IMG/VR virus record: IMGVR_UViG_3300045988_168162
Coordinates: 64,001-128,000 of that record
Length of the DNA stretch: 64,000 bases
Source: a virus
Strand: one strand, 5' to 3'
The position numbers and the translations under genes are program-made. The notes under the pieces were generated by a model, which was not told the origin of the DNA, made no database searches, and was given only the letters and a program-made list of their open reading frames with translations. Each line of letters begins with the position of its first letter. Positions within the stretch are counted from its first letter, which is position 1. This document shows, piece by piece, positions 5,008 to 36,772 of the stretch.

Positions 5008-5904
5008 ATGAAACGCTCTAATAAGCTCGTCGCCGCCACTAATGCAGCCAATGAATCCAAAATTCAGGCTTTGACAGCCATGTTGCTCCGCGCCAAGACC
5101 CAGGATGAGCGTTCTGTGTTGATTGAGGCTTTGGCAGAAGCCAATAATATGAACATCGTAGTGGGTGGCGCCCATAAGACCCCGGTCAGGAGCCATGACC
5201 GCTGTTTGACTTTGTCGCCATATAAGTCCAACGGTGCCCGCAAAGCTACCGCAGCCGAGCCCATCCGCAATCAGGATGATTTCCGCGCAATTGGCAACTA
5301 CCTGCTGACCCACGGCAACGAACGAAACCGGCAGCGCAACTATACCTTATATATATGTGGTATTACGCTTGGCCTACGAGTAGGGGACTTGCTGAATCTG
5401 ACCATTGGCGATGTGTATGATCTGGCAGAGGCATCTGTTCGCGGCCATCTTCAGATCATCAACCAGAAAACGCACAAGCGCACAACTGATCTGATAACTC
5501 CAATGGCCGCCAATGCAATTACTGATTTGGTCAATGAGATCCGCACAGCACAGAGCGGCGTGCTGGATGCCAGTTGGCCGTTGTTCCAGAGCCAAAAGTG
5601 GTGCCGCGCCGGTGGTATGACTAAGAAGCTTTCCAAAAGCCAAGTTTATCGGTTTTTGACAGAGGCTGCTAAGGCATGTGAAGTTCAAGGCCATATCAGT
5701 ACGCATAGTATGCGCAAGACCTATGGTTATGCTGCTAATAGTACACTAAGCCAGAGCGGAGTACCGGCAGCACAGATCATGGAGACCCTGCAGGCCAAAT
5801 TCCGCCATAGTGACCAGACTACAACAATGCGTTATATCGGTTTGCAACAGGAACAGATTGACGCAACCGCACTTAGTGTTGATGCCGCATTGGGCGGCTT
5901 ATAA
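5008..5904 (+). CDS. int: tyrosine recombinase / phage integrase
   Basis: AAGGAG SD; C-terminal HSMRKTYG and RHSDQTTTMRYIG (H-x-x-R ... H ... Y catalytic pattern). Confidence 0.85.
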   Translation: MKRSNKLVAATNAANESKIQALTAMLLRAKTQDERSVLIEALAEANNMNIVVGGAHKTPVRSHDRCLTLSPYKSNGARKATAAEPIRNQDDFRAIGNYLLTHGNERNRQRNYTLYICGITLGLRVGDLLNLTIGDVYDLAEASVRGHLQIINQKTHKRTTDLITPMAANAITDLVNEIRTAQSGVLDASWPLFQSQKWCRAGGMTKKLSKSQVYRFLTEAAKACEVQGHISTHSMRKTYGYAANSTLSQSGVPAAQIMETLQAKFRHSDQTTTMRYIGLQQEQIDATALSVDAALGGL

Positions 5905-11588: not shown

Positions 11589-12072
11589 ACATTTACTATC
11601 CTATAACGAGCGCCAGAACTGCAAGCTGGCTATGGCATGGTATGAGCGTATAGACGAAACCGTTCACAGCACGCGGCCTGTTGGCGAAACCAACTATGAC
11701 GAAGAATGCCTGAACTCTGTAAATTTCTATTGGCAGATGGCAGATGTGATGCTGCAGGAGCTGATGTTCGCGGCTGAGGATGCCAAGAAACTTGACCCGC
11801 ATTTGCAGATGTACAGTGTACGTAAGGTACATGACGAATGTGTAGAGGACCTAAAGGCGCTCCGGGCAGAGATTGATGATTGGCTGGATGAAAATACTGA
11901 GTCTGTGCCGCAGCAAACCATCAAAGAATTACTTGCCAAATATACACCAGAAGAATTACAACAAATTTTGAGAGAGGAGTTAGCCACTGTTGGAGTCGAT
12001 CCAGATGATGCAAATGCAGTACAAGAAATACTGCAACCAATTAACTGGAACGCCGCATCGGTAACATCATAA
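11581..12072 (+). CDS. acidic hypothetical protein
   Basis: GGAG SD; overlaps the upstream stop. Confidence 0.45.
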   Translation: MSEHLLSYNERQNCKLAMAWYERIDETVHSTRPVGETNYDEECLNSVNFYWQMADVMLQELMFAAEDAKKLDPHLQMYSVRKVHDECVEDLKALRAEIDDWLDENTESVPQQTIKELLAKYTPEELQQILREELATVGVDPDDANAVQEILQPINWNAASVTS

Positions 12073-12077
12073 AAATC

Positions 12078-12974
12078 ATGGAATATATTGAACGCAAAGA
12101 TTACAACAAGGTTATCACCATAAAGCTGGTCATTCCTGGCGGCTGTAATTGTAAATGTCCTTTTTGCTATATGAAGGACTATGATGCGGTTATGGCGAAT
12201 GATTTTCAGGAATTCCATAAACATTATCTTAAATCTCTTATTGACCTCATAGAAAAAATTGGTGACAAAAACCCTATCTCGCTTGATATTACGGGGAATG
12301 AACCAACGCTGAATTTGACGCAGTTTATCACGATTCTTAGAGAGTTGGATGAGGCAGATATAAAAAGCAAAGTGCAGCGAGTTACACTGACGACGAATGG
12401 GTTTAATCTGATGAAAGTGGCCCCTTACCTTAAAGGCGTTGTGGATTATGTGAATATTTCTGTACATGATTATGATTTTGACAGGCGTCAGAGAATCATG
12501 GGGGCGAATACTTTTACGCGAGAGCAGTATTACAGTATGACGCACACGCTCAAGCAGTTGGGTATTACCACTTCTGCTTCGGCCGTGATCTATAAACCGG
12601 TTCCTGATTTTAAAAAGTGGTTTGACGAGTTTGTAAGCTGGTGTGAAGATGCTGGTTTTATTGCACTGAGACTGCGCTGCGATGTGTTTTGGCCGCAAAA
12701 AGAATTGTTTGATGACTACATGCAGCTGGCCATGGACGATAAGGAGTATACCGTTCTTACACATGAGCGTACCTTGGACTCACATTGGTGCCGGTTGCGG
12801 AAGAACGATAAATTCAGAGTCTTCTTTTTGCATGGTGTGCGTGATACATCTATTCTGACAAAGGGGATTGAATATGTAATAGATGAAGATGGCATTGCTT
12901 ACTGCGATTTTTATAAGCGGACAAAAGTCAGTGACTACAAATATGAGATTGGTAAAATCTATGATGCCATTTAA
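12078..12974 (+). CDS. radical SAM domain protein
   Basis: CNCKCPFCY gives C-x3-C-x2-C at 12144-12167; ITGNEPTL (GGEP-like) and TTNG motifs. Confidence 0.7.
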   Translation: MEYIERKDYNKVITIKLVIPGGCNCKCPFCYMKDYDAVMANDFQEFHKHYLKSLIDLIEKIGDKNPISLDITGNEPTLNLTQFITILRELDEADIKSKVQRVTLTTNGFNLMKVAPYLKGVVDYVNISVHDYDFDRRQRIMGANTFTREQYYSMTHTLKQLGITTSASAVIYKPVPDFKKWFDEFVSWCEDAGFIALRLRCDVFWPQKELFDDYMQLAMDDKEYTVLTHERTLDSHWCRLRKNDKFRVFFLHGVRDTSILTKGIEYVIDEDGIAYCDFYKRTKVSDYKYEIGKIYDAI

Positions 12975-13289: not shown

Positions 13290-14399
13290 TTGAAGGTATA
13301 TAAAGGCTACAAGTTCAAACTTGAGCCTACAGAGGAGCAGAAAATCAAAATCAACAAAACGCTCGGCTGCTGCCGCTTTGTGTATAACTCCATGTTGGAT
13401 AGGCGCATAAAAGTCTATACACGGCGCGGTGAGAGTATAAGCTATATTGATACGCAGAATCTACTTCCTAAGATGAAGCAGTATCTACCTTGGCTTGCCG
13501 AAGTGGACAGTCAAGCGCTCAAATATAGCTGTCGTCAATTAGACGACGCTTATAAAGGGTTCTTTAAAAGTAGAAGAGGCTTTCCAAACTTCAAACGTAA
13601 AAGGGGAGAGGAAAGCTACACAACTACCAGCGCAAAGAATATTAAGATTGATGATAAATACATTCAGCTCCCAACGCTCGGAAAAGTGCGCTATCGCAAG
13701 AGCCGCAACATCGAAGGAAAGATTTGCAAGGCAACAATTCGTCGTTCCGCAAGTGGTAAATACTATGTAAGCATTCTTTGCAAAGTAGAAGTAACACCAC
13801 TTCTTGTTAAAGATACCGTCATCGGTTTAGATGTAGGCATCAAATCTTTTGCTGTTGACAGCAATGGTAACGAGCACCCAAATCATAAATATCTTCAAAA
13901 AGCGGAAGCCAAACTAAAGCGTGAACAGAAAAAGCTGTCACGTAAAAAGAAAGGCTCTGCCAACTGGGAAAAGCAGCGCATCAAGGTAGCTCGCTGCTAT
14001 GAAAAAGTTACCAATAAACGAAAAGATACATTGCACAAGTTGTCATCTACACTAGTGAAAGAAAATCAAATCATTTGTGTAGAAGACCTTAACGTTAAGG
14101 GTATGGTTCGTAATCACAACCTCGCAAAGAGTATTTCCGATGCTGCTTGGGGAGAGTTCTTCCGCCAACTTGAATATAAGGCTAATTGGGCAGGAAGAGT
14201 TATCGTTAAAGTGCCGACCTATTATCCAAGCAGCCAGACTTGCTCTTGCTGTGGATATCAAAACAAAGAAGTCAAAAACCTCAATGTGCGGCATTGGGTC
14301 TGCCCTCAATGTGGTATATCGCACGACAGAGATAAAAATGCTGCAGAAAACATTCTGAAAAAAGGAATGGACATGCTGGCTATGTTAGCTGCCTCATAA
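13290..14399 (+). CDS. tnpB: TnpB (IS200/IS605-family OrfB, RNA-guided RuvC nuclease)
   Basis: N-terminus [11 protein letters not shown]...LGCCRFVYN; RuvC residues [31 protein letters not shown]; zinc finger CSCCG...CPQCG. Confidence 0.9.
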
Positions 14400-16229: not shown

Positions 16230-16354
16230 GAACTAACGCCCAACAGGGCGAAAATATAAATAGACTGGCCCCGATGGGGCAAGGGGGGGGTGATTTTATC
16301 GGAAATGCAGGAGTCTGGCTTTGAAATCTATGAACAGGGCATAATGGCCCCTGC

Positions 16355-16669
16355 ATGGATTGGCAAAATGTCAGACAGGGAGGTCATTATTTGGAAAAGA
16401 AAAAAATTGAAAATCTGTACTGCTTGATTGAAGCACTGTACGATGTGAAGGATGCCTTTAAGGCAATTGTATTTTTGACTTGCGCTGTATTTATCATTTG
16501 GTATTCCTCGGTAATTGTGAGCCGGGCATTCGCTATTGCTTTGTTTGTGGTATTGCCGCTGCTGATTGGCGTGCTGTGGTTCTGTATCTACAAAGAGGCT
16601 TTTGCGGATGGCGCTCTTTCTATTGAAGAGATTGAGAAAAAAGACGAGGATAACAAGGAGGGACGCTGA
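16355..16669 (+). CDS. membrane protein
   Basis: Two hydrophobic helices; ATGA-type junction with the next gene. Confidence 0.45.
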   Translation: MDWQNVRQGGHYLEKKKIENLYCLIEALYDVKDAFKAIVFLTCAVFIIWYSSVIVSRAFAIALFVVLPLLIGVLWFCIYKEAFADGALSIEEIEKKDEDNKEGR

Positions 16670-19245
16670 TGTTTGCACCTCCACTGTACATTGTACGGAA
16701 ATTCCCGCTATCTTTTATTATCAGCAATGACTTTAATATCCAGCTTGATGAGGATGAAGAAAAGCGGTTCCAGGTTAAGCAGCAGGACAATATGCTATTT
16801 AGGCAGATCCGGCTGATGACGTATGAAACGGACAAGTATAACCGGTTTGTAGTGTTCGTAAATTGCGTTGGCGGGCAGAACAAAAAGCCTGCCATGAAGC
16901 GGCTGATCCAGCACGGGTTCAAGATTGGCAAACAGGAATTTGTGCTGAGTGAGCGAAGTGCGAGCATGGTGCGCCAGGGAATTTTGAGCTTTGTAGATAA
17001 GCGGCTGGCTAAGGAACTGGATAAACGGATCACGATGGGAATCGAGATTGATAAGACTGTATTGCAGAAGCTATATGCTTACCGTGGGCTTATGTACTCC
17101 AGTTGCCACTGTATCGAAGGATGGCTGCCCAATATTGTAATTGTCCCTGATTGCTTTTTAACTATTAAAAATCAGCACATCAATTATGTGTATGACAAGA
17201 AGATACAATTCAAGGATAAAAATACTGGCAAAGACCGTGAATGGGAACAGAAAGATATTGCCGAGACCACCAAAGATATTGAGATAAATGCTTTTGATGG
17301 TTGTGGGATTGCACATCCTAAAATCATGGAAGAGATCCGCCGCCGGATTGGCAGCGATGAGCCGATAACTAGCTTTATAGCACGTGCGCCGTATCTAAAA
17401 GGTATGATTCACCAGTTTGATTATGAGAGTTTTTTCGCAGAACGCGGCGTGCGGTTTATTACAGATATTTGGGGCGTACAGCATGACGTAAGCCCTGGGT
17501 CTGAGCCAAAGATGTTCTGCCTGGAATCTATGTATAAAGGGTTGAAATACTTTAAGAAGACCGGAACTATAGCAGACTGGGAAGAATACTGGTATCAATT
17601 TAAAAAGTACAACCATTGTATTGGTGTGGCAAAGTGGAACTTCTCGGCAGAGCTGGAACCAATGTATACCCGCGGCAATTACCAAATCTTGCAGGATCTT
17701 GATTTGCCGTTTGAAAAGTTCAAATCATTAACCGATTATACGATTGACTGGTTTGAACGGATCACTGACGGAGACCCGGTATATACCTACTGCTTTTTGG
17801 GTATGCAGGCTGACCGCCATAAAGCGTTGAATGATTATTGTGCTGCTATCCTTAAAAATCCAGAAATGATGAATGAGGATGGAGTACGAAATTACATAGT
17901 AAATCTATTAAGCAAATATCGTGATGATATGAAGTGCGGCAAAGTTTGGCTGCATGGATCGTTCTGTTTTTTGGTGCCTGACCTGATTATGCTGGCCGAG
18001 CATATTGGTGGGTTGCCATTACAAGGGGCGCTGCAGGCGGATGAATTTTATCGATTCAATCGAGAGGGCACGTTGCTTGGAGAACATTTGATTGAACGAA
18101 ACCCACATATTTGTAAAAGCGAACATGTTATCTTAAAAGGTGTAACGAACGAGGTACTGGAAAAATATTGCGGTCACCTGGTAAATACCTGCATGGTAAA
18201 TTGCCGGTCAATTGTGCCGCAGAGATTGAATGGCGCGGATTACGATGGAGATTTAGTCCTCGTATTGGATAACAAAACTATGATGGAAGGAGTTGACAGA
18301 AACGCAGCAATAACACTGGATATTGACGATAAGGTTTGCGCCCTTGTAGAAGCTGATACGGTACAGAACAAAACAGAGTGTATTATCCGCGGATTAAAAT
18401 CCCGTATTGGTGAAATCTCTAATTTTGCAAGTTCGTACCATAATAAATGCCCCAGGACAGAAGAACAACGGCAGCGGTACAATACATTCATAAATCTTTT
18501 GAGTGTCAGTAACGGAAAAGAAATTGACGCTGCAAAGACGGGTGTACATTTTAAGATACCGCGCAACATTGAAAAGTATGGCCGCCCATTGCCGTACTTT
18601 ATGAAATACGCAAGCCCCTACTACAAGCGCATGAAGAATCTATCTGCAGCGCACAGTAATATGAACCAGTTGTGCTGGTTTATCGAACGCTGGGAGAACA
18701 CGATACGCCGCCGCAGAACAAAGAAATTTGACTGGTCCATTATGTTTGATGCGGACGTAGGATACACACAGGAGCATTTCCAAGAGATTGAAGCTATCTA
18801 TCTTGAATTTTGTAAGCTATGCAAAGACTTGGCAGAGTTTGAGCGACAGTGCAAGAATTATGATAGATACCGCGAGATCCTGGCAGAGCAGGGTGTGTCC
18901 CGTGAACAGGCGCGAGAATTTGAAACGAACTGGCAATATTATTACAGCGTATACCGCAATAGATGCCAGCTTCTCGTGCCGGATCAGCATGAACTTGCCA
19001 ATATCTGTGTTGAACTTTGCTACGGCAAATACCCAAGCCGGAACAAAAAGTTTATGTGGATGATGGCGGGGAAGGGCATTGTAGAAAATATTAAACAGGT
19101 AAATATCTGCTTGCCATTGCAGTGCGATGATGGTGAGTATGAATACCTTGGCAAACGATACACACTGGCACCAATGGAGAATGATATCCAGGTAGAATAT
19201 GTTGATGCTGAACTTATTCCCGGAGGTGATGCGGATGTATTATGA
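16669..19245 (+). CDS. YonO/QDE-1-like single-subunit two-barrel RNA polymerase
   Basis: IERNPHICKSEH ... LNGADYDGDLVLV (DbDGD metal-binding loop at 18238-18252, compare NADFDGD of beta-prime and DYDGD/DLDGD of cellular RdRPs). At 858 aa it is similar in size to YonO. Confidence 0.65.
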   Translation: MFAPPLYIVRKFPLSFIISNDFNIQLDEDEEKRFQVKQQDNMLFRQIRLMTYETDKYNRFVVFVNCVGGQNKKPAMKRLIQHGFKIGKQEFVLSERSASMVRQGILSFVDKRLAKELDKRITMGIEIDKTVLQKLYAYRGLMYSSCHCIEGWLPNIVIVPDCFLTIKNQHINYVYDKKIQFKDKNTGKDREWEQKDIAETTKDIEINAFDGCGIAHPKIMEEIRRRIGSDEPITSFIARAPYLKGMIHQFDYESFFAERGVRFITDIWGVQHDVSPGSEPKMFCLESMYKGLKYFKKTGTIADWEEYWYQFKKYNHCIGVAKWNFSAELEPMYTRGNYQILQDLDLPFEKFKSLTDYTIDWFERITDGDPVYTYCFLGMQADRHKALNDYCAAILKNPEMMNEDGVRNYIVNLLSKYRDDMKCGKVWLHGSFCFLVPDLIMLAEHIGGLPLQGALQADEFYRFNREGTLLGEHLIERNPHICKSEHVILKGVTNEVLEKYCGHLVNTCMVNCRSIVPQRLNGADYDGDLVLVLDNKTMMEGVDRNAAITLDIDDKVCALVEADTVQNKTECIIRGLKSRIGEISNFASSYHNKCPRTEEQRQRYNTFINLLSVSNGKEIDAAKTGVHFKIPRNIEKYGRPLPYFMKYASPYYKRMKNLSAAHSNMNQLCWFIERWENTIRRRRTKKFDWSIMFDADVGYTQEHFQEIEAIYLEFCKLCKDLAEFERQCKNYDRYREILAEQGVSREQAREFETNWQYYYSVYRNRCQLLVPDQHELANICVELCYGKYPSRNKKFMWMMAGKGIVENIKQVNICLPLQCDDGEYEYLGKRYTLAPMENDIQVEYVDAELIPGGDADVL

Positions 19246-20053
19246 TTTTTTCTGCAATGAGAAGATGTTACTTGATCATTATGAGGATTATCATATGGGA
19301 AACCGGACTTTAAACCGGCTATTGGCCCAGAGTGGTATGCCACCGGATGTTTGTGCAGATACCTATCTGGCTAAAATGGACAACCATAAAGGGCTTACCT
19401 ATGACAGATACGATCTGATACTTGATTATGAAAAAAGATGTACGAAAACCAGCAGACTTTTAGAAATTGATAAAATACAGATTTATAAGCAGGATATTGA
19501 GTTTATTAAGGATTGCGCCAGAAAATACCCGCTAAAGCAGCGTGAGCTGCTTGTGTTGTTTGGCGTGATAGTGATGTGCCGGATCTGGCAGACCGACACG
19601 TTAGATCTGACAACAGAATTTAACTTAAAGCAATTTTGTAGTTGCTTTAATGGAAAAATCTGGAAAGTGCGGATCAAAACAGACAAATGGTATGATACAT
19701 ACCACGAGCCTGAAAATATGAAGAATCTATATAGTAAGTATAATATTTTACTACGGACACCGTGTGAACCAGGCCCCAAGAAAATTGGCTGTTATTATAC
19801 TTACAGTAACTATGAATTGTACGATAGAGAAGTCGTTTATGAATATGTGATAACACCGCGGACCAATCGGCTGAACCTGTGTGAGGTATTTAAAGAGGTA
19901 GGACTTGAAAATATCCACTTTTGCCAGTGCTGTGGGGCGGAATATCACTTGAACAGTAAATCTACAAAATATTGCTCCAAATGTGCCAAAGAAATGCGCC
20001 GCGAGAAAACACGGGTTCGGACACGAAAGTACCGTAGCCATGCGAAAATGTGA
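19235..20053 (+). CDS. hypothetical protein with C-terminal zinc ribbon
   Basis: GGAGGTG SD; CQCCG...CSKC followed by a basic tail. Confidence 0.5.
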   Translation: MYYDFFCNEKMLLDHYEDYHMGNRTLNRLLAQSGMPPDVCADTYLAKMDNHKGLTYDRYDLILDYEKRCTKTSRLLEIDKIQIYKQDIEFIKDCARKYPLKQRELLVLFGVIVMCRIWQTDTLDLTTEFNLKQFCSCFNGKIWKVRIKTDKWYDTYHEPENMKNLYSKYNILLRTPCEPGPKKIGCYYTYSNYELYDREVVYEYVITPRTNRLNLCEVFKEVGLENIHFCQCCGAEYHLNSKSTKYCSKCAKEMRREKTRVRTRKYRSHAKM

Positions 20054-20095
20054 CGCTTTCTGAGGAAAGAGTTTTATGTAGGATTGGGTATAGTT

Positions 20096-20128
20096 GCCCG
20101 CTTGGTTTTAAGCCTGGCGGGCTTTTTG
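20096..20128 (+). terminator. rho-independent terminator
   Basis: GCCCGC...GCGGGC stem followed by TTTTT. Confidence 0.6.
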
Positions 20129-20168: not shown

Positions 20169-20384
20169 ATGATTACTGTTACTAAGGCTGAGGCCAAGAT
20201 GATCCGCAAGATGTTCCCGAAAGCGCACATGAGCAAGACCGTACACCACATTATGGTGGACGAAGTAAAAGACATTTTGAATGTCCTGCCCAATAATGTT
20301 GACGCGCAGGCTGCCCTTGCGGAGATGGAGCGCGATGAAAAGCGCCGTACTGCCCGCACTTTTGATGGCGAGGTGAGTGCATGA
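20169..20384 (+). CDS. hypothetical protein
   Basis: ORF ending in an ATGA overlap with the next gene. Confidence 0.4.
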   Translation: MITVTKAEAKMIRKMFPKAHMSKTVHHIMVDEVKDILNVLPNNVDAQAALAEMERDEKRRTARTFDGEVSA

Positions 20385-21565
20385 ACAATTGGCCGATTTT
20401 TGAAGGAGAGACAGAGGACCATTACGTTTACCGCATTTGTTCCATGAAAGACCAGATTGGCACATGGCCTGATGTGGCGAATGTTATCAATGAAACGCTG
20501 GGGCAGAATAAGGGCGAGTGCGCCTACCGCAAAACTTGGAAGGCTTTCCAGGACATGCAGGATGCTTGCGGCTATGACACGACTGACTCGCAGGCGGTAC
20601 TTGAAGAAATTAAGAATGAGCGGCGCGAGTTGGAAAAGGCCAAGGTCAAGTTCCGCGATGAGCGGAATGAGGTAAGCCGCCTGATGCGTGTACAAGCCCG
20701 CGGTGAATCCATGCGCGAGCTGATTGAACGCTGCATTGATGCCTATGACCCAGCTGAATATGAGCATGTGGATGTGATGCAGTGTGTGGGGCAGGGTGAT
20801 TGCGACCTTGTGGTACACCTGACGGATCTGCATGCGGGTATCCATATTGACAATACCTTTAATAAGTTTAACCAGGAGATCATGGCTTACCGGCTGCGGA
20901 AATACGCCGGAAAGATTACAGAGATCTGGCGGCGGCACAATGCCAAGAACTGCTACATAGTGCTTGGTGGCGACATGGTGAACGGTGCGATCCACGTAAA
21001 CAGCCGCCTGGAAAACAACGAGCATGTTGTGGACCAGGTGATCACGGCCAGTGAAGCTGTGAGCTGGTTTGTGGCAGAGATGGCCAAGCTGTTTGTAAAT
21101 GTGGAAGTGTACAGCGTGCCGGGCAACCATAGCCGTGTATTCCCTAATAAGGAAGACAACCAGTATGGGGAATATCTGGACAAGTTGGTGACGTATTTTG
21201 TTGGCGCGAAATGTGCCTGCATTAACAACATCCACATGCATGATAACAAAATTGACGATACCGTGGCGAATCTCACCGTGCGCGACCAGCTGATTTATGC
21301 TGTGCATGGAGATAAGGATGCGGCTGGCAGTGTTGTGCAGACCCTGACGATGATGACGGGTGCAAAACCGGCCATTGTACTGATGGGGCACCGCCATACA
21401 AATGCCTTGACTACTGTTTACGATACCAAGGTTTACGAGAGCGGCTGCGTGAATGGCCCTGACGGGTATTGCATGGAAAAAAGACTTAGAAATAAACCGG
21501 AGCAGACCGTGCTTGTGGTAAATGACCAGGGCGTGGACTGCGCTTATGATATTAAGCTGGATTAA
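20381..21565 (+). CDS. calcineurin-like metallophosphoesterase with N-terminal extension
   Basis: Motifs VHLTDLHAG, LGGDMVNG, VPGNHS, AVHGDK, LMGHRHT. Confidence 0.75.
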   Translation: MNNWPIFEGETEDHYVYRICSMKDQIGTWPDVANVINETLGQNKGECAYRKTWKAFQDMQDACGYDTTDSQAVLEEIKNERRELEKAKVKFRDERNEVSRLMRVQARGESMRELIERCIDAYDPAEYEHVDVMQCVGQGDCDLVVHLTDLHAGIHIDNTFNKFNQEIMAYRLRKYAGKITEIWRRHNAKNCYIVLGGDMVNGAIHVNSRLENNEHVVDQVITASEAVSWFVAEMAKLFVNVEVYSVPGNHSRVFPNKEDNQYGEYLDKLVTYFVGAKCACINNIHMHDNKIDDTVANLTVRDQLIYAVHGDKDAAGSVVQTLTMMTGAKPAIVLMGHRHTNALTTVYDTKVYESGCVNGPDGYCMEKRLRNKPEQTVLVVNDQGVDCAYDIKLD

Positions 21566-21594: not shown

Positions 21595-21855
21595 ATGGTT
21601 TTTGTGGAAGACCATGAGAAGCAGCAGCCGGAATACTTTTGCAGCTATTCTGGACGGCTGACCAGTTTTTTGAAGGCTTTTGGACTGAGCTATAGCGAAC
21701 GAGCAAAGAACCCGATTACCGGCGCAACGTTTTGTATTTTTGAGCGGAACCAGAAGCTGCTGGATATTGTGGAGTTTTGGTCTGAGTGCCGTAACAAATT
21801 TAAGGATTACGACGAGGCCGGAAACCGTATTGAGCATGAGGCGGGTGATGCATGA
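21595..21855 (+). CDS. hypothetical protein
   Basis: GGGGGA SD; overlaps the next gene. Confidence 0.4.
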   Translation: MVFVEDHEKQQPEYFCSYSGRLTSFLKAFGLSYSERAKNPITGATFCIFERNQKLLDIVEFWSECRNKFKDYDEAGNRIEHEAGDA

Positions 21856-22901
21856 TGCCAGGACGGCCGAAAGGATCAAAGAATAAAGCGACTATTTTGC
21901 GGGAACACGCCGAGGCCCAAGCGCGAGCACAGCGCCGGATGGAAGAAGACGAGGTCCCCGCTTATTTTGTTTGTGCGCATTGCGGCAAGCGTTTTTTGAA
22001 ACAGCAGGAAAATTTTTCGGTTTGCCAGAGTACGCTTTGGGCCGGGAATAATTATTACCTGCCGATTTGTAATAACTGCCTGAACAAGCTGTTTGACCAT
22101 TACGTGGAGACATTGGGCAATGAGAACGATGCCTGCAAGCGTATTTGCATGAAGTTTGATATTTACTACAGCCAGTCGCTGCTTGACTCTACCGCGAAAC
22201 ATGCGCCAAATATCCCGCGCATGAAAGCCTGGCTGCGGCAAACCAATATGATCCAGCACAGAGGCAAGACATTTGATACATACCTTGCCGAAGTGGAAGG
22301 ACGTATCATCAATGAGCCGGAAGAAATCTTGGACGCTAAAGGCAAGGTTAGCCAGCGTATGCTGGAATTTTGGGGCCCAGGGTTTAAGGACCAGGATTAT
22401 GTATTTTTAGATAAGGAATACAAGGACTGGATCAGCCGGTATGAGTGTAAGACCAAAGCGCAGGAGGTTTTGTTTAAAAACATTGCTATTGCGCAGCTGA
22501 ACGGCATGAAGGTTGCCAAGACGGGTGATCCAAAGGATATTAAGACTGCCAACGACAACCTGCAAAGCCTGTTGGGAAGTGCAAATATCAAACCCAACCA
22601 GACAAACGATAATGCGCTGACAGATGCCAATACATTTGGCACACTGATTGAAAAGTGGGAACGGACAAAACCGATCCCAGAGCCTGACCCTGCATGGAAA
22701 GATGTAGATGGTATTGGGCATTACTTTAGAGTCTGGGTGCTTGGTACTTTGTGCGAATTGTTTAATTTAAAAAATCCATACAAGGCCGAATATGATGCCG
22801 AGATGGAGAAGTACACGGCGCATAAACCTGAGTACCATATGGACGAAGATGAGTCCAGCACCGCCGCAATCCGTAGCGCTGTTTTTGGCGAGGCAGAGTA
22901 A
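21852..22901 (+). CDS. possible small terminase / DNA-binding protein (by position)
   Basis: Immediately upstream of the large terminase; basic N-terminus; CAHCG..CNNC zinc motif. Confidence 0.35.
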   Translation: MMPGRPKGSKNKATILREHAEAQARAQRRMEEDEVPAYFVCAHCGKRFLKQQENFSVCQSTLWAGNNYYLPICNNCLNKLFDHYVETLGNENDACKRICMKFDIYYSQSLLDSTAKHAPNIPRMKAWLRQTNMIQHRGKTFDTYLAEVEGRIINEPEEILDAKGKVSQRMLEFWGPGFKDQDYVFLDKEYKDWISRYECKTKAQEVLFKNIAIAQLNGMKVAKTGDPKDIKTANDNLQSLLGSANIKPNQTNDNALTDANTFGTLIEKWERTKPIPEPDPAWKDVDGIGHYFRVWVLGTLCELFNLKNPYKAEYDAEMEKYTAHKPEYHMDEDESSTAAIRSAVFGEAE

Positions 22902-22912
22902 GGCGGTGCATT

Positions 22913-24667
22913 ATGGCTCAGAAACGAATGAGTGCAAATGAAGTTGCGAATGACAAAGCCGACCGTGTGATGAATGCGGTGGCAATATGGTGCTCTTACT
23001 ACAGGGCGAATCCGCACAGATTTTGCAAAGACTACCTTAATATAGACCTGCATCCGTTCCAGATGATCCTGATTTATATGATGAATCTGGCAACGAATTT
23101 TTGCTTCACGGGCAGTCGAGGGTTAGGCAAGACTTACCTGACAGCGGTTTTTGTTGTTACGAGGGCAATCCTTTGGCCTAAGACGAAAATTTGTATAGCA
23201 GCAAAGACGCGCGGCCAAGGGATACAAGTTCTTGAAAAGATAACAAAAGAGTTGATGCCAAACTCTGGTCTGTTGCGAGGAGAAATTAAGGATGTAGTAA
23301 TTAACCAAAGTAATGCGCAAATTACGTTCCGTAATGGAAGTTACATAGAAGTTGTTACCGCGAACGATAACTCCCGTGGCCACCGTGCCAATTTATTGGT
23401 ATGCGACGAGTTCCGTATGATCAATAAAGATGTCATCGACCTTGTTTTGAAGAAGTTTTTGACAGTTGCAAGACAGCCTGGATATTTGAAGAAGCCGGAG
23501 TACAAACATCTGATTGAGAGACCAAAGGAAATGTATTTGAGCAGTTCGTGGTTTCAGAGCCATTGGTCATGGCAGCTATGCAAAGACTACTTTGTATCAA
23601 TGCTTGACCCCAATAAAAAATATTTCTGTTTCCGGTTCCCATATCAGATGCCTGTTAAGGAAGGTATGTTGTCAATTGAGCAGGTAGAAGATGAGATGGC
23701 TGAATCCTCGTTCAGTGATATCAAGTTCCGTATGGAAATGGAAGCTATGTTTATTGGGGCTACAGATGGAGGATTGTTCAGTTTCGACGACATCAACAAA
23801 GTTCGCAATTTGAAGAAGCCGTTCTATGCACCCAATGTGATACTTGGCGGCAAAGATTTTGTACCGCCCGCAAAGAAGCCGGGGGAAAAGCGAATCTTGA
23901 CGGCTGATATTGCTTTGATGAGCAGCAAGCACAACGACAATGATGCCACGAGTATTTTCCTGAACAGCCTAGTACCGGATAGTTCTGGGCGTTGTACCAG
24001 CAATATGGTGTATACGGAAAACTGCGAGGGTATCATCACGCAGGATCTGGTGCTTAAACTGCGCCGGTATTTTAAGTGGTTTGACTGCGACTACATTGGC
24101 ATTGATGCCAAGGGCCTTGGTGCCCCCATTATGGATTTGCTGATGCATGAGTGTTATGACCCGGAGACGGGGGAGACTTATCCGCCGCTGAATTGTTGTA
24201 ACAACCCGGACTTTCAGGAACGGTGCCCGGACAAAACTGCGCCAAAGGTGATTTGGGCTATCCTGGGCAGCGCACAGCTGAACAATGATGCTACGATTTC
24301 TTTGCGAAGTGGCATACAGCAGGGAAGAATCCGGTTTTTGGAATCGGAATACGACTGCGAGGACTTGCTGCGCAAGGAGATAAAAGGTTACGACAAGATG
24401 ACGCCGACAGAAAAGACGGCTTTGCAGCTACCTTTTATAAACACGGGGCTGATGGTAAACGAATTGGTGAACCTGGAATATGAGGCCACTAATAACGTGA
24501 TCAAAGTACATGAGAAGCCTGGTGCCCGCAAAGACCGCTACAGCTCGGTTAGTTATAACTACTACATCGCACAGCAAGTAGAACGAAGCATGGCGAAAAA
24601 CTATGCTAAGAGCAAGAAAATTGAAATAAACTTTAGAGCGCCGAATCTGAGGAGGGGTAGCTTATGA
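22913..24667 (+). CDS. terL: terminase large subunit
   Basis: Walker A GSRGLGKT, Walker B LLVCDEF, C-terminal nuclease-like region; followed by the portal. Confidence 0.85.
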   Translation: MAQKRMSANEVANDKADRVMNAVAIWCSYYRANPHRFCKDYLNIDLHPFQMILIYMMNLATNFCFTGSRGLGKTYLTAVFVVTRAILWPKTKICIAAKTRGQGIQVLEKITKELMPNSGLLRGEIKDVVINQSNAQITFRNGSYIEVVTANDNSRGHRANLLVCDEFRMINKDVIDLVLKKFLTVARQPGYLKKPEYKHLIERPKEMYLSSSWFQSHWSWQLCKDYFVSMLDPNKKYFCFRFPYQMPVKEGMLSIEQVEDEMAESSFSDIKFRMEMEAMFIGATDGGLFSFDDINKVRNLKKPFYAPNVILGGKDFVPPAKKPGEKRILTADIALMSSKHNDNDATSIFLNSLVPDSSGRCTSNMVYTENCEGIITQDLVLKLRRYFKWFDCDYIGIDAKGLGAPIMDLLMHECYDPETGETYPPLNCCNNPDFQERCPDKTAPKVIWAILGSAQLNNDATISLRSGIQQGRIRFLESEYDCEDLLRKEIKGYDKMTPTEKTALQLPFINTGLMVNELVNLEYEATNNVIKVHEKPGARKDRYSSVSYNYYIAQQVERSMAKNYAKSKKIEINFRAPNLRRGSL

Positions 24668-26190
24668 CAGATAAGGAACAGCGTCAGGTTGCCGTGATTT
24701 CCCCAGACGGCAAGCGTAATTATGTGCCGGTCTCGGAATTTATGAGCAAGCTGCGCTATGCAAACTTGTCCAACATTAAAGTAAGAGACCTGGAAAACAA
24801 CAAAGATTACAACCCCACATATCGCAAATACACGAAATCACAGATCGTGACCTACCTGAGCAACCCGGCCAGCTATGAAACGCAGCTGCGCCAGATGAGC
24901 CAGTACCTTTTTAATATATCGAACTATTACCGGCGGCTGATCCAGTATTTTGCTAGTATGAGTATGTTCAGCTACATTGTGGTGCCGTATGGTGTTGACT
25001 ACTCCAAGAGCGTGAACGTAAACAAGTTTAAAAAGGGATATTACGGTGTCATTAGCCAGTTGGAACGTATGAATATCCGGCACGAGTTCTCGAAGGTATT
25101 GATGGTTGCATTCCGGGATGATGTGTATTACGGATATGCCTGGGAGACCAATGACAGTTATGCTTTACAGCAGTTGGACCCGGATTATTGTAAGATTTCC
25201 AGCATTGAAGATGGTGTTTACAATTTTGCGTTCAACTTTAGCTATTTTGATGCTAACAGCGAGCGGCTGCCGAATTTCCCGCCGGAATTTACCACGATGT
25301 ATAACGCTTACCAGAAAGACACCAACCTGAAATGGCAGGAGCTTTCCAGTGAGAATTCTGTTTGCATTAAGATCAATGAGCAAACCTATGTGCCGATCCC
25401 GCCCTTTGTGAGTCTGTTTAGTGCATTGGCGGACATTGAAGACTACCGCGCTATCAGCAAAAATGCCAGCGAAGTGAACAACTACAAAGCATTGGCGCTG
25501 GAAATCCCGGTTGATGATGAAGGTACTTTTTTGATCGACTATGATTTGTGCAAGGACTTCTACGATATGCTGTGCAACGTGTTGCCGGAAAATATCGGAG
25601 CCTTTATGAGCCCGATGAAAGTATCCAGCTGGGATTTTGAAAAGAGCGGTGCCGTGAGCGGTAGTGATGATGTTGAGAAGGCTGAAGCGTCCATGTGGAC
25701 GCAAGCTGGCGTAAACAGCATCCTGTTTGGCGGCGGAGATAAGGACTCGGCCACCTCGGTCAAATGGTCCACCATCAACGACCAGATGATCGTGTTTACT
25801 GTGATGCGGCAAATTGAACGCTGGATCAACCGCAAATTGAAGAGTGTTTCTACGGCATATAAGTTTAAGGTAAATATCTTAGATGTTACATATTTTAACC
25901 GTGACGAGATGCATGACCGCTATATTAAGGACGGCCAGTATGGATTGCCTGTCCGCGCTGCTATTATGGCGACCGGCGGCTATACGCCCAGTGATGTAGA
26001 AAACCTGATGTATTTGGAAAACACGATTTTGGACTTGAGTTCCAAGGAAGTGCCGCTGAAAAGCTCCAATACGCAGACTGTAGATAACGGTGACGGCGGA
26101 CGGCCTACCAATGAGAGCCAGGGGAAAGACCTGAGCGATGCGGGGGCTGTCACACAGAAGAATGACTCCAACGCGAACTCGGAGGGCTAA
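24664..26190 (+). CDS. portal protein
   Basis: 508 aa; ATGA overlap with terL; canonical position. Confidence 0.7.
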   Translation: MTDKEQRQVAVISPDGKRNYVPVSEFMSKLRYANLSNIKVRDLENNKDYNPTYRKYTKSQIVTYLSNPASYETQLRQMSQYLFNISNYYRRLIQYFASMSMFSYIVVPYGVDYSKSVNVNKFKKGYYGVISQLERMNIRHEFSKVLMVAFRDDVYYGYAWETNDSYALQQLDPDYCKISSIEDGVYNFAFNFSYFDANSERLPNFPPEFTTMYNAYQKDTNLKWQELSSENSVCIKINEQTYVPIPPFVSLFSALADIEDYRAISKNASEVNNYKALALEIPVDDEGTFLIDYDLCKDFYDMLCNVLPENIGAFMSPMKVSSWDFEKSGAVSGSDDVEKAEASMWTQAGVNSILFGGGDKDSATSVKWSTINDQMIVFTVMRQIERWINRKLKSVSTAYKFKVNILDVTYFNRDEMHDRYIKDGQYGLPVRAAIMATGGYTPSDVENLMYLENTILDLSSKEVPLKSSNTQTVDNGDGGRPTNESQGKDLSDAGAVTQKNDSNANSEG

Positions 26191-26196
26191 TGCTTT

Positions 26197-26382
26197 ATGG
26201 TAAAAGAAGTAAAGGTCCGAGGACGAGCGATTGCGCTGCACCTGATTTTGGGCGGTGCGGCTTTAGTGCGTGAAGAAAAAGACGAGGCAGGGCATAAGAT
26301 TTATGTGTTTGTTTTGGAAGATTGGCGCATTGAAGAGCTAAAAGAATATGTGAAAGAACAACAGGATAGAAACTACTTTTGA
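26197..26382 (+). CDS. small hypothetical protein
   Basis: ORF after the portal, followed by a hairpin and T-run. Confidence 0.4.
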   Translation: MVKEVKVRGRAIALHLILGGAALVREEKDEAGHKIYVFVLEDWRIEELKEYVKEQQDRNYF

Positions 26383-26387
26383 CCGGC

Positions 26388-26420
26388 GGCCGGGCTTATA
26401 CCCGACTGGCGGCCTTTTTG
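26388..26420 (+). terminator. possible terminator
   Basis: GGCCG...CGGCC stem with an inner CGGG/CCCG, then TTTTT. Confidence 0.4.
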
Positions 26421-26438
26421 ATTTGTGGGGGTATAACG

Positions 26439-28100
26439 GTGGATAAGAGACTTAACCGCTTGCCCGTCACCTTTGAGAAAACGGGAGAAGTTGCCGGTAA
26501 AGATGTGCGTTTTATCAACGTAACGATTGATGTGATGCACACCGGCGACAACTTGAACGGCTCCACTTTCTCGAAAGAGGTGGTGGAACAAGCTTTGGAC
26601 AGTATCAAGAATACACCGATCCTTGGTTATATTGAGCAGAACAAAGATGGCGACCTTGATTTTAAGGGCCATGAACATGAGCTGCAGGTAGACGAGGACG
26701 GTATTAAATATGTGTACGCGGGCAGTGCTTACGGAGTGATCCCGGAAAGCTGCAATGCCCGTTGGGTGACACGCGACGATGGAACGGGAACCGAGCGGGA
26801 GTACCTGCGCGTGGATGGTTTGCTGTGGACCAAATTTGATGATTCCTGTGATATTTTTACGCGGGATGGTGTGAAAGCGCAGAGCATGGAACTGACCGAA
26901 ATGGATGGCCGGGTAGATAAACGCGGTTATTACATTGTGGACAAGTTTGCCTTTGATGGCTGCTGTGTGCTTTCGACCACTGACCCGCGCATTAAGCCAG
27001 CTATGACGGGCAGCGAGGTTGTGGCGAATTTTAGCGCCGGGACGATTGCTGGCCAGATCAAGGATATGCTGGCTGAATACACAGCTTTACAAGGATCTCA
27101 ATCCTCCAAGGAGGCTGAGATAGATAATTTTGCGAAAGGAGAAGATGTTTTGGAGAAGAAGAATGAAATTCTTGCATCCTACGGCATCGATGCTTCTAAG
27201 CTGGATTTCTCTTTGGAGGATATTACCATTGAGGAACTGGAAGAGAAGTGCAAAGCCATGACGGCAGAGCCTGCTCAGGAACCGGAAGCTGAACCTGCTG
27301 CTGAAATGACGGCGGAAGAGCCGGAGCAGGAACCTGTCCAGGAGCCTGCTGCGCAGATGAGTGCCGAGCCTGAATCTGTTGAGCCTGCGGCCGAGCCGAA
27401 AGAGTTTAGCCTGACGGTAAACCAGCAGATGAACGAGCTGCGTAGTGCTATTGCTCAGGTTACTTTTGTTGACCGTTGGGGCGATGAAGGCGTCCGCTAC
27501 TGGATGCAGGATGTACAGGACAACCGTGCCATTGTTTGCGATATGCAGGACTGGAAAACTTACGCAATTCCGTTTGCCATGGACGGCGACAATGTTGTTG
27601 TTGACTGGGACGGTAAGAAGCGCGTGAAGGTACAGTATGTGGACTGGGAGGACGGCGCTGCCGAGCCTGAGCTGCCTGTGCTGTATGAAGAGCTGGCTGG
27701 CCGCATTGATGCTGCTAAGAAAGCGATCTCTGATTATGCAGAGGTAAAGGCACAGCTGAATGAGATCCAGCCGAAGTACGATGCCTATGTGGCTGCAGAA
27801 GCCGCCGCGAAACAGGCTGCTGATGAGGCGAAACGCGCACAGCTGTTTGAACTGATGGACAAAAAGCTGGAGGGTGTTGCAGAATATGCTGCCCTGCGCG
27901 AAAACAAGGATATGGAATTTAGTGCCCTTGAGGACGAGTGCTATAAGCTGCTTGGCAAGAAGGCCGCTGAATTCAGCTACATGCCGCCCAAAAATGCTAA
28001 GGGCGAAGTGAAGAATGCACGCTTTGGCGTGGACGGGGTCCAGATGCAGCCTGCTGAGGGCAAATACGGTGACCTGTTTGAACGCTATCACGTTCGATAA
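26439..28100 (+). CDS. scaffolding / prohead-protease-like protein
   Basis: Lies between portal and capsid; central E/P/A-rich low-complexity region, then coiled coil; GTG start assumed. Confidence 0.4.
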   Translation: MDKRLNRLPVTFEKTGEVAGKDVRFINVTIDVMHTGDNLNGSTFSKEVVEQALDSIKNTPILGYIEQNKDGDLDFKGHEHELQVDEDGIKYVYAGSAYGVIPESCNARWVTRDDGTGTEREYLRVDGLLWTKFDDSCDIFTRDGVKAQSMELTEMDGRVDKRGYYIVDKFAFDGCCVLSTTDPRIKPAMTGSEVVANFSAGTIAGQIKDMLAEYTALQGSQSSKEAEIDNFAKGEDVLEKKNEILASYGIDASKLDFSLEDITIEELEEKCKAMTAEPAQEPEAEPAAEMTAEEPEQEPVQEPAAQMSAEPESVEPAAEPKEFSLTVNQQMNELRSAIAQVTFVDRWGDEGVRYWMQDVQDNRAIVCDMQDWKTYAIPFAMDGDNVVVDWDGKKRVKVQYVDWEDGAAEPELPVLYEELAGRIDAAKKAISDYAEVKAQLNEIQPKYDAYVAAEAAAKQAADEAKRAQLFELMDKKLEGVAEYAALRENKDMEFSALEDECYKLLGKKAAEFSYMPPKNAKGEVKNARFGVDGVQMQPAEGKYGDLFERYHVR

Positions 28101-28684: not shown

Positions 28685-28716
28685 GCGCTGCCCTGAAATA
28701 TGGGCGGCGCTTTTTC
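28685..28716 (+). terminator. rho-independent terminator
   Basis: GCGCTGCCC / GGGCGGCGC stem, then TTTTT. Confidence 0.6.
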
Positions 28717-34204: not shown

Positions 34205-34595
34205 TAAGTACAAAGTTTCGGCAAAAGAGGACCGCACCTATGATGGGATTGTGTTTGACTCTAAGGCCGAGATGAAATACTACCGGGATGTTGTGCTGCC
34301 CGGCGTTGCCAACGGGACGATTGTGGATTATCAGTTACAAAAGCCGTATGAGCTGCAGCCGAAATTTAAACATGACGGCAAAACCGTGCGAGCTATAACT
34401 TATGTATGTGATTTTTACCTGGTGTATGCAGATGGGCATACTGAGGTAATTGATATAAAAGGTATGGCGACTACGGAAGCATTGCTGAAGCGAAAGCTGT
34501 TTATGTACAGATACCCGGATGAAAACTGTATATGGCTGGTGGAACGCAAGGCCGGTTGGATACGATATGAAGATTGCAAAAAGCGTAAAAAATAG
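34197..34595 (+). CDS. DUF1064-type nuclease-fold protein
   Basis: NKYKVSAKEDRTYDGIVFDSKAEMKYY ... DFYLVYADGHTEVIDIKG pattern; start uncertain. Confidence 0.5.
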   Translation: MRNKYKVSAKEDRTYDGIVFDSKAEMKYYRDVVLPGVANGTIVDYQLQKPYELQPKFKHDGKTVRAITYVCDFYLVYADGHTEVIDIKGMATTEALLKRKLFMYRYPDENCIWLVERKAGWIRYEDCKKRKK

Positions 34596-34605
34596 GGAGG
34601 CTTTT

Positions 34606-34686
34606 ATGACCAATAAAATTTTGCGGGGGGGGGTACTCCCTTAATGTAGTACCCGAAATGCACCTTACGAAAGTGGGGTGTTGGGT
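34606..34686 (+). promoter_or_regulatory. leader 1: mini-ORF (MTNKILRGGVLP, 34606-34644), G9 tract (34625-34633), hairpin 1 (34631-34654), hairpin 2 with GAAA loop (34661-34680)
   Basis: AGGGAGG SD before the mini-ORF; stems GGGTACT/AGTACCC and CACCTTAC/GTGGGGTG; the second stem covers the SD-like GGGGTG of the cassette. Confidence 0.6.
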
Positions 34687-35019
34687 ATGAGTGTTGCGCT
34701 GATGAGTGCAGGCGGCGGTAGCGGAAGTATTACAAGAGTAGAGCTTGTAGATTTGTCATTTTCACGATATAGTGGTAGTTTTACTAAAACGGCAGATGTT
34801 TCTTCGTATAAAGGATACAAAAAATTCACTAATGATAATTTTGTTGTTATGACGACATCTGTATATATGGGTGATAGCGACGCTTATGCAGGCAGCAGTT
34901 ACAGTGTGTCTTACAATCAAGATACTGGAATTGTTACTTTTACTGTGAAGATAAATACGAACGCAAATGGCGGGTATCATCAACATTCTGCTTCTGCCAA
35001 AGGATATTTATTTTACTAA
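34687..35019 (+). CDS. cassette protein 1 (conserved MSVALM..GGG N-terminus, unique C-terminus)
   Basis: MSVALMSAGGGSGS...; paralogous N-terminus shared with 35129, 36129 and 36769. Confidence 0.6.
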   Translation: MSVALMSAGGGSGSITRVELVDLSFSRYSGSFTKTADVSSYKGYKKFTNDNFVVMTTSVYMGDSDAYAGSSYSVSYNQDTGIVTFTVKINTNANGGYHQHSASAKGYLFY

Positions 35020-35038
35020 TTAAAACAAGGAGTTATTT

Positions 35039-35128
35039 ATGAATTACATGAATTTTGTCCGGGGGGGGGGTACTGTGTAAACCATAGTATCTCCGAAGCA
35101 TCTCGTTTAGAAAGCGAGGTGCTGTGAT
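35039..35128 (+). promoter_or_regulatory. leader 2: mini-ORF (MNYMNFVRGGGTV, 35039-35080), G10 tract (35061-35070), hairpin 1 (35066-35094), hairpin 2 (35098-35122)
   Basis: AAGGAG SD; stems GGGGGTACT/AGTATCTCC (2 G-U pairs) and GCATCTCG/CGAGGTGC, the latter covering GAGGTG. Confidence 0.6.
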
Positions 35129-35572
35129 ATGGCATTAGCTTTGATGGGGCCTGGCGGTGGCGGAAGTAATAAAGAAATATCAAAAATGAAGTCTACAAGA
35201 CTATGGACGAACGCAAACTCTTTTAAGAATTTTGACGGAAACGGTATCAAAGGAGGCCCTGGCTCCACACCAAATATTCCACTTTCAAATTTAACTGATT
35301 ATGATGTACTCGCTATTGCGTGTAAATTATACACTAACAGTTCTAATGACAATCCATTTATTAACTATATTGGAGTAAAAGAACAAATTTTGAATGGGAA
35401 AAATGGTGGATTATTTATATTGTGTGGAGGAACTGGCGGATCTGCTGGCGTTTTTAGAAACGCGCGTCTTCTCTCTACTGGCCTTTGTGTTACGTGGGAC
35501 ACAGGATCACTGGACGGGGAACATGTATCTAATGATGGAGCAATTCCATTGTATGTAGATGGATTAAAGTAA
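35129..35572 (+). CDS. cassette protein 2
   Basis: MALALMGPGGGGSNKE...; unique C-terminus. Confidence 0.6.
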   Translation: MALALMGPGGGGSNKEISKMKSTRLWTNANSFKNFDGNGIKGGPGSTPNIPLSNLTDYDVLAIACKLYTNSSNDNPFINYIGVKEQILNGKNGGLFILCGGTGGSAGVFRNARLLSTGLCVTWDTGSLDGEHVSNDGAIPLYVDGLK

Positions 35573-36644: not shown

Positions 36645-36679
36645 ATGTTTATTATCGAATTTAATTGGAGGTATATTTT

Positions 36680-36772
36680 ATGATTAAGAATATTCTGCGG
36701 GGGGGGGGGTATAGTAATCTAAACTATACCTCTGATATGGATACTTGTGCCGGAAAGGCGGTGCGAGTATGA
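36680..36772 (+). promoter_or_regulatory. leader 3: mini-ORF (30 aa in the current frame), G11 tract (36699-36709), hairpin 1 (36706-36732), hairpin 2 (36744-36767); the mini-ORF TGA overlaps the cassette ATG
   Basis: TTGGAGG SD; stems GGGGTATAG/CTATACCTC and CTTGTGCCG/CGGTGCGAG; ATGA junction at 36769-36772. Confidence 0.6.

Follow-up and report, generated by a model that had tools for sequence, protein, structure and literature searches.

The 64,000 nucleotides (nt) analysed here, referred to below as the window, are positions 64,001 to 128,000 of the viral record IMGVR_UViG_3300045988_168162, and they encode an 858-amino-acid (aa) protein which is, close to certainly, a two-barrel polymerase of the superfamily containing YonO of the Bacillus subtilis phage SPbeta and the cellular RNA-dependent RNA polymerases (RdRPs). 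Its closest characterised relative is YonO, and the protein is most likely a YonO-type DNA-dependent polymerase that serves the late operon of its phage, both the DNA dependence and the transcription of the late block being carried over by analogy with YonO. YonO-like genes have been known in Firmicute prophages since 2003. To our knowledge, the YonO-type enzymes are the smallest relatives of the cellular RNA polymerases, and only one of them has been studied. While the kind of enzyme described here is already known, the present analysis adds a candidate promoter, a candidate partner protein and an intron polymorphism in the polymerase gene. The gene and its conserved motifs are as follows.

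16669-19245, + strand: YonO-family single-chain two-barrel RNA polymerase gene, intron-less allele; intact 858-aa open reading frame (ORF) with an ATG start in the ORF listing.
17932-17943, + strand: KCGK, with K422, G424 and K425 in invariant columns; aligned with KSGK of YonO.
18094-18126, + strand: ERNPHICKSEH strand, with R477, P479, H480, E485 and H486 invariant in the alignments.
18226-18264, + strand: LNGADYDGDLVLV, the predicted catalytic metal-binding loop, with D524, D526, G527 and D528 invariant; aligned with DNDGD of YonO.
18514-18543, + strand: GKEIDAAKTG, which closes a long helix (residues 598-624) of the AlphaFold2 model; G616, K617, D620, K623, T624 and G625 invariant in 48 homologs.

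The original prediction, made from the letters alone, had pointed to this ORF and to two motifs in it about 45 residues apart. Both are present, ERNPHICKSEH at residues 476-486 and LNGADYDGDLVLV at residues 520-532, with a spacing of 44 residues, and no other genuine ORF in the window contains D-x-D-G-D. Residues 77-656 match the Pfam family RdRP (PF05183) at E = 1.8e-11, with a score of 43.9 bits versus a curated cutoff of 23.8, which is far beyond chance and makes the protein, like its homologs, a member of this family; PHROG 8308, to which no function is assigned, is matched at 1e-81. In a pairwise BLASTP comparison with SPbeta YonO (E = 2e-25, 23% identity over 524 columns), KCGK, RNPHICKSEH and DYDGD of the window protein are paired with KSGK, RSPHLFREH and DNDGD of YonO, respectively. 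When GenBank phages were searched by tblastn, 42 records matched, the best of them an unannotated contig of a human-faecal phage (51% identity); the Thomasclavelia phages TR-TP1 and TR-TP2 (43%), the Enterocloster phages (~24%) and yonO of SPbeta, phi3T, Goe12-14 and others (~23%; E between 4e-19 and 8e-19 where the record is annotated yonO) were also found. In an alignment of 35 sequences, inclusive of YonO and TR-TP1, the invariant residues are K422, G424, K425, R477, P479, H480, E485, H486, D524, D526, G527 and D528, and the identical set is invariant in a second alignment of 48 closer homologs. The family is large, with 436 close matches in 90% clusters and 2,522 clusters at 50% identity in a profile search (E <= 1e-3).

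The structural evidence points in the same direction. An AlphaFold2 model of the protein, built on an alignment, has a predicted local distance difference test score (pLDDT) of 90.5 and a predicted template modelling score of 0.86. In Foldseek searches of the Protein Data Bank (PDB), the top matches were RDR2 of maize and Arabidopsis and QDE-1 of Neurospora and Thielavia (E 1e-21 to 1e-17, template modelling score (TM) ~0.5, ~900 columns), followed by gp66 of the crAss-like phage phi14:2 (E 1.7e-4, probability 0.97) and then by NRPD1 of Pol IV and bacterial beta-prime, the beta-prime match being a remote fold match via the common barrel only. In a viral structure library, models of phage 'RdRP' proteins were matched at 1e-38 and the P23-45 polymerase (A7XX94) at E 1.7e-6. 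Sequence searches of the PDB, either with the single protein or with a 48-sequence profile, gave no polymerase match (the profile gave a spurious L31 match only) and thus the link to solved structures exists at the level of fold only. The model, the alignment of its core with RDR2 and QDE-1, and the span of the Pfam match all point to a predicted core of two double-psi beta-barrels in one chain. In such a core, KCGK would contribute conserved basic residues of the first (beta-like) barrel, and the ERNPHICKSEH strand corresponds, as we take it, to the R-x-P-x-x-H of beta-prime (NRAPTLH...NADFDGD region). A YonO/QDE-1-like two-barrel enzyme is what had originally been proposed, and this identity is upheld by a profile of the RdRP or two-barrel family above its curated threshold, by the BLASTP match to YonO, by fold matches both to QDE-1/RDR2 and to gp66, and by the invariance, in the 35 as well as the 48 sequences, of the three aspartates of DYDGD and of the RNPH..EH strand. 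The accompanying statement that the window has no T7-like or multisubunit polymerase agrees with the scans of its long ORFs, as neither the 858-aa ORF nor any other long ORF gave a profile match to such polymerases in PHROGs, Pfam or NCBIfam.

The name of the matching Pfam family, the best structural matches (viz. QDE-1 and RDR2) and the label 'RNA dependent RNA polymerase' carried by homologs in GenBank and UniRef could be read as indicating a true RdRP, which copies phage or host RNA, e.g. so as to produce antisense or double-stranded RNA that serves in regulation or counter-defence. QDE-1, moreover, is credited in a passage of PMC9508822 with both DNA- and RNA-dependent activity. However, this interpretation is very unlikely to be correct. 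The RdRP names on the homologs result from automatic transfer of the Pfam label and are probably misnomers, whereas YonO, the sole characterised bacterial or phage member, is a DNA-dependent late-gene transcriptase (PMC5467207), and the window polymerase is placed relative to the YonJ-G-F-E-D late block as yonO is. Further, no RNAi-like partners lie nearby, and the setting is a double-stranded DNA tailed phage with terminase, portal and tape measure. QDE-1 and RDR2 also share with the window protein the DYDGD loop and the Pfam family, but they are only 12-15% identical to it and are eukaryotic enzymes of RNA silencing that use RNA templates (QDE-1 also single-stranded DNA). The polymerases of phi14:2 (gp66, 6VR4) and P23-45 are, like the window protein, phage-encoded two-barrel enzymes and are detected by fold; however, with TM of only 0.2-0.34 they are more distant than YonO or QDE-1, and gp66, which has 2,166 aa, is packaged in the virion.

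Among cultured phages, the closest relatives are Thomasclavelia TR-TP1/TP2 and Enterocloster PMBT24 and CB457P1-CB473P3, where the polymerase is labelled either 'RNA-dependent RNA polymerase' or hypothetical. We know of none of these Thomasclavelia and Enterocloster genes that has been studied as a polymerase, and the paper describing PMBT24 does not discuss the gene. TR-TP1 has the same layout as the window, viz. polymerase, small gene(s), YonJ-like exonuclease, terminase and portal, whereas in TR-TP1/TP2 and the Enterocloster phages the neighbour of the polymerase is a gp4-like protein lacking a Zn ribbon, and an IHF/HU-like protein is present in addition. The YonO-type family is common in large phages of human-gut Clostridia, and it is routinely, and probably wrongly, labelled as RNA-dependent.

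The surroundings of the gene also bear upon the reading of the window protein as a late-gene transcriptase. The window is phage DNA, as seen from its large terminase, portal, tape measure, tail proteins and tyrosine integrase, and the related contigs are 90-150 kb long, the size class of SPbeta. The genes and elements around the polymerase gene are as follows.

16355-16669, + strand: small hydrophobic ORF of 104 aa; its stop codon and the ATG of the polymerase overlap (TGATG).
19235-20053, + strand: 272-aa Zn-ribbon protein, a candidate accessory or specificity factor; coupled to the polymerase, with conserved cysteines.
20075-20100, + strand: conserved A/T-rich box TATGTAGGATTGGG and then a hairpin, a candidate late promoter or leader element; from cross-clade alignment and folds.
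20096-20128, + strand: intrinsic-terminator-like hairpin (GCCCGC...GCGGGC and a T run) at the end of the polymerase/Zn-ribbon operon; from folding.
20169-20384, + strand: 71-aa ORF that takes the place of yonK of SPbeta and opens the late block; conserved in relatives.
20381-21565, + strand: YonJ-like metallophosphatase/exonuclease; BLASTP to YonJ 8.8e-16, PHROG 284.
21852-22901, + strand: YonG-like protein; BLASTP to YonG 9e-46.
22913-24667, + strand: large terminase, YonF-like; BLASTP to YonF 1e-154 with 42% identity, PHROGs and Pfam terminase matches.
24664-26190, + strand: portal protein in the YonE position; PHROG 2739 at 2e-120, BLASTP to YonE marginal (0.008).
26379-28100, + strand: YonD-like protein; BLASTP to YonD 6e-5.

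As the polymerase ATG overlaps the stop codon of the 104-aa ORF (replaced by a 92-aa ORF in relatives), the polymerase gene belongs to an operon; its own Shine-Dalgarno sequence, AAGGAGGG, is 7 nt upstream of the ATG. Downstream of the polymerase, homologs of YonJ, YonG, YonF and YonD follow in the SPbeta order, with the marginal YonE match between them, and the proteins of near-identical relatives have precomputed Pfam matches to YonJ_N, YonG_N and YonD_N. Only for the 71-aa ORF is similarity to its positional counterpart, YonK, undetectable. The likeness to YonO therefore extends from the protein, a single chain of ~850 aa with KxGK, RxPH..EH and DxDGD in equal order, to its surroundings, as yonO also lies just upstream of the YonK-position ORF and of the YonJ-, YonG-, YonF-, YonE-position and YonD-like genes, and is also followed by a terminator hairpin. 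The placement of the polymerase directly upstream of the late block is kept across clades of 50-100% identity, and GC hairpins with T runs occur at the equivalent place in the relatives L009, L010 and L012 (contigs and phages used for comparison are given by such numbers where they need to be told apart). The two systems differ in that yonK of SPbeta is preceded by an HU-like YonN and by 1.7 kb of non-coding DNA, versus a gap of ~115 nt in the window, and in that the host of SPbeta is Bacillus, whereas that of the window phage is a gut Clostridium-type bacterium. The hosts of the relatives are gut Clostridia, with cultured phages on Thomasclavelia ramosa and Enterocloster bolteae and prophage copies in Gehongia tenuis and Anaerolentibacter hominis. 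None of the GenBank phages was matched in a megablast with 22 kb of window sequence, and the phage has no close cultured relative.

For YonO, which was characterised in 2017 as a single-peptide DNA-dependent RNA polymerase (Forrest et al., PMC5467207), the Asp triad is essential, the 3D>3N mutant being inactive (PMC5467207), and the SPbeta block that starts upstream of yonK is not expressed unless YonO is present, a single long transcript covering it (PMC5467207, PMC8270828). If the window polymerase works in a similar manner, then the host RNA polymerase would transcribe an early or middle operon consisting of the small ORF, the polymerase and the Zn-ribbon protein, and would stop at 20096-20128. 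The phage polymerase, copying DNA into RNA by means of the D524/D526/D528 metal site, would then drive the long + strand late block from 20169, comprising the YonK-position ORF, the YonJ/G/F-like genes, the portal and YonD-like genes and the head and tail genes after them. Initiation might occur at the TATATATGA-like box and hairpin (20075-20100), possibly, though this is speculative, with the Zn-ribbon protein acting as the subunit for DNA binding or specificity. Strong intrinsic + strand terminators are found inside the late block at 28685, 29747 and 37189, due to which late transcription would need read-through; by analogy, the phage polymerase may read through such terminators because it is without the flap and lid modules of cellular polymerases, as inferred from the discussion in PMC5467207.

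The same terminators could alternatively mark several units of the host polymerase, in which case the target of the phage polymerase would lie elsewhere, e.g. in middle genes, a non-coding RNA or replication priming. This is unlikely, although the promoter of the polymerase is a candidate only and the YonO transcript of SPbeta begins with an unannotated non-coding RNA (PMC5467207), both of which would fit with another target. However, the conserved site upstream of the late block, which begins 40 nt past the terminator-like hairpin, mirrors that of SPbeta, where dependence of the late genes has been shown genetically, and there is no canonical host-type promoter ahead of the late block, as no sigma-70-like promoter was flagged between the hairpin and its first gene.

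The candidate promoter for late transcription by the YonO-type polymerase emerged from a comparison of 53 distinct versions of the 276-337-nt stretch extending from the polymerase-adjacent gene to the YonJ-like gene. About 20 nt past the stop codon of the adjacent gene a box recurs, which reads TAATATATGAAAGGG in more distant clades and TATGTAGGATTGGG in the window, and a hairpin follows directly 3' of it. The stem of this hairpin varies by clade (GAAAGGG/CCCTTTC, AAGAGA/TCTCTT or GAGGG/CCCTC, with a nested GC hairpin in the window). The box occurs as a single copy per 20-kb locus, at this position, and it is also found in the clade of L018 and L019, whose polymerase neighbour is a different protein. 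Based upon these sequence comparisons, the TATATATGA-like box with its hairpin upstream of the late block is a candidate promoter. The idea in the original prediction that phage-specific promoters could be among the conserved elements of the window needs adjusting: the repeated poly-G elements of the window, described below, fit translational leaders better, and the candidate box, which came from cross-genome comparison with relatives, is a different element.

The candidate partner is the 272-aa Zn-ribbon protein. Its ATG lies 11 nt before the polymerase stop codon and it has its own Shine-Dalgarno sequence (GGAGGTGA), i.e. the two genes are translationally coupled, and in 69 of the loci compared a homolog of this protein comes next after the polymerase. 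In these homologs C230, C233, C247 and C250 are invariant. The C-terminal ribbon and basic tail of the protein (FCQCCGAEYHLNSKSTKYCSKCAKEMRRE) resemble the last 45 residues of YonO, the ribbon matching YonO residues 796-821 by BLASTP (0.001) and by hhalign (81% probability, E 1.2e-5, 26 columns). YonO has its own C-terminal Zn ribbon and basic tail, whereas in the window this module is on a separate downstream protein, and the common ribbon is a hint, of the fusion type, that the polymerase and the 272-aa protein are functionally linked. The AlphaFold2 model of the protein has a pLDDT of 91.4; no match was obtained in a fold search of this model against the PDB (best E 1.3), nor does the protein belong to any Pfam or NCBIfam family. 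We tentatively suggest, as a possibility that falls well short of probable, that the two proteins form a two-part transcription system, in which the small protein would recognise the TATATATGA-box and hairpin, and that in SPbeta its ribbon would be fused to the C-terminus of YonO. If this were true, it would be the first handle on promoter finding by YonO-type polymerases, which the 2017 study left explicitly open. In any case, the comparison of phages yields two testable candidates, viz. the box and hairpin before the late operon, and a neighbouring protein tied to YonO by its Zn ribbon.

A number of points weigh against parts of this reading of polymerase, box and neighbour. The identity to YonO is only 23% and is confined to residues 76-585, the C-terminal thirds of the two proteins not aligning. 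The nearest solved structures are those of enzymes with RNA-dependent activity, and the sequence cannot tell a preference for DNA templates from one for RNA. The box is short and A/T-rich, and in the clade of the window it is degenerate, with 10/14 matches to the consensus of the other clades; in the window, this degenerate pattern gave 3 matches vs 2 expected, which is no enrichment. It also lies upstream of a terminator-like hairpin. An SPbeta look-alike, AGTTTTTTATGTAGGG, was rejected as the counterpart of the window box, as it sits under the published reverse primer used in primer extension and hence downstream of the YonO start site. Lastly, the Zn-ribbon partner is not universal, and some clades carry in its place a ribbon-less protein of 180-216 aa or an HU-like protein (cf. 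YonN of SPbeta).

Other observations on SPbeta concern the surroundings of the YonO start site, which has been published at position 2225998 of strain 168. A second look-alike of the box, TCATTTATGAGGGTG, is located between the primers, but it requires a 2-nt gap to align and it is not relied on here. Separately, the minus strand of SPBc2 (L088) has in the yonN-yonK gap, at ~10607-10590 and 10449-10428, two copies of TCATTTATGA(A/G)GGT that are ~160 nt apart, the second of which falls between the primers that mapped the YonO start site. This pair might be part of the YonO promoter.

The polymerase gene of the window is intact, but many database homologs stop or start at about residue 523 and others stop at about residues 617-625. 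These homologs are broken because of inserts in the polymerase genes of relatives, which are present in L003 (11573-11828), L004 (6579-6834) and L005 (~11812-12850), and also in L014, L016, L034, L058, L074-L077, L083, L085 and L087. At the first site (site A), the insert in L003, L004 and L014 is of 256 nt and lies exactly between codons 524 and 525 (G-A-D|Y-D-G-D); in L004 its flanks are 99.3-99.9% identical to the window. This insert had no match in Rfam even at E = 10, and it was thus diagnosed from its splice-site features: it follows an exon U, its GUCCG can pair with exon CGGAU (with U.G at the splice site), it has the core GAAGAUAUAGUC, and its last base is G. It also folds far better than shuffled sequences (z = -4.58), and a homologous copy in L034 has an HNH-like ORF. 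At the second site (site B), at codons ~616-624 (GKxIDxAKTG), L005-L007 have an insert of ~1 kb with an HNH ORF, which matches the Rfam family Intron_gpI with E 4.8e-4, below the gathering score; at the gathering thresholds, neither the window nor two relatives had an Rfam match. Inserts at both sites are found in L074, L076, L077 and L087. Judged by these sequence features, the inserts are group I introns located at the two most conserved motifs of the polymerase, with splicing predicted. The window allele is without either intron. Introns in genes for multisubunit phage polymerases are known (PMC11620839), and no report of introns in YonO-type genes was found in the literature searched. Alleles with and without introns thus exist side by side in nature, as material for work on homing into the active site of a polymerase.

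These introns also bear upon the question of whether the polymerase could be a decaying or inactive relic without a function in this phage, a proposal which is extremely improbable. The ORF is full-length with all of the catalytic residues invariant, the model is very confident and there are hundreds of conserved homologs. Further, the intron-bearing alleles keep exact splice boundaries, and where the putative self-splicing introns lie within the catalytic codons of near-identical alleles the reading frame must be restored, which indicates that the enzyme is needed.

The poly-G elements, which were considered as promoters, were rejected in this role as leader ORFs fit them better. Three leaders of ~90 nt, at 34590-34690, 35027-35132 and 36666-36772 of the window, lie ahead of paralogous small genes whose products start with MSVALMSAGGG, MALALMGPGGG and MSVALMGPGGG. 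Each leader has a Shine-Dalgarno sequence, an ATG and a short ORF that runs through a tract of 9, 10 and 11 G in copies 1-3, respectively, after which two hairpins follow, the first of them with compensatory changes. Only with a tract length of 3n+2 (8 or 11) does the leader ORF reach a TGA overlapping or abutting the ATG downstream, so that in the window copy 3 would be 'on' and the other two copies 'off'. In the near-identical phage L089, the tracts at sites 1 and 3 have 8 and 9 G, which reverses this state. The elements look like a phase-variable translational coupling for alternative (perhaps tail-tip) proteins and not like promoters, but an assembly error in the homopolymers is possible. 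A fourth tract, of 8 G (16283-16290), is located in an intergenic leader, 386 nt ahead of the polymerase ATG and right after a GGCCCCGATGGGGC hairpin, and in near-identical contigs its length is 9 (L004) and 7 (L008); it could modulate expression of the polymerase operon.

Among the homologs of the Zn-ribbon gene, those of a distant clade, viz. L021 (~13687), L062 (~13581) and L024 (~13978), have TAG in frame at codon 151; this codon is TGG (Trp) in sister phages, and the frame is conserved beyond it. This could be due to stop-codon recoding or suppression, or to a common nonsense mutation.

Upstream of the polymerase operon, the early region encodes a tyrosine integrase (Phage_integrase, 5008-5904) and a radical-SAM protein (12078-12974), and relatives encode a Thg1-like protein near this region. 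Between the radical-SAM gene and the polymerase operon lies a TnpB / IS605 OrfB-type gene (13290-14399; domains HTH_OrfB_IS605, OrfB_IS605 and Cas12f1-like TNB), which is missing from the equivalent place in L003 and L004 and is located elsewhere in L005, and thus appears to be a mobile insertion. No tRNA genes are present in the window. Three minus-strand genes at 58017-59573, 59664-61970 and 62544-63596 (518, 768 and 350 aa) have no significant match in PHROGs, Pfam or NCBIfam, and a 1,931-aa protein encoded at 46123-51918 (+ strand) shows faint tape-measure or coiled-coil matches only.

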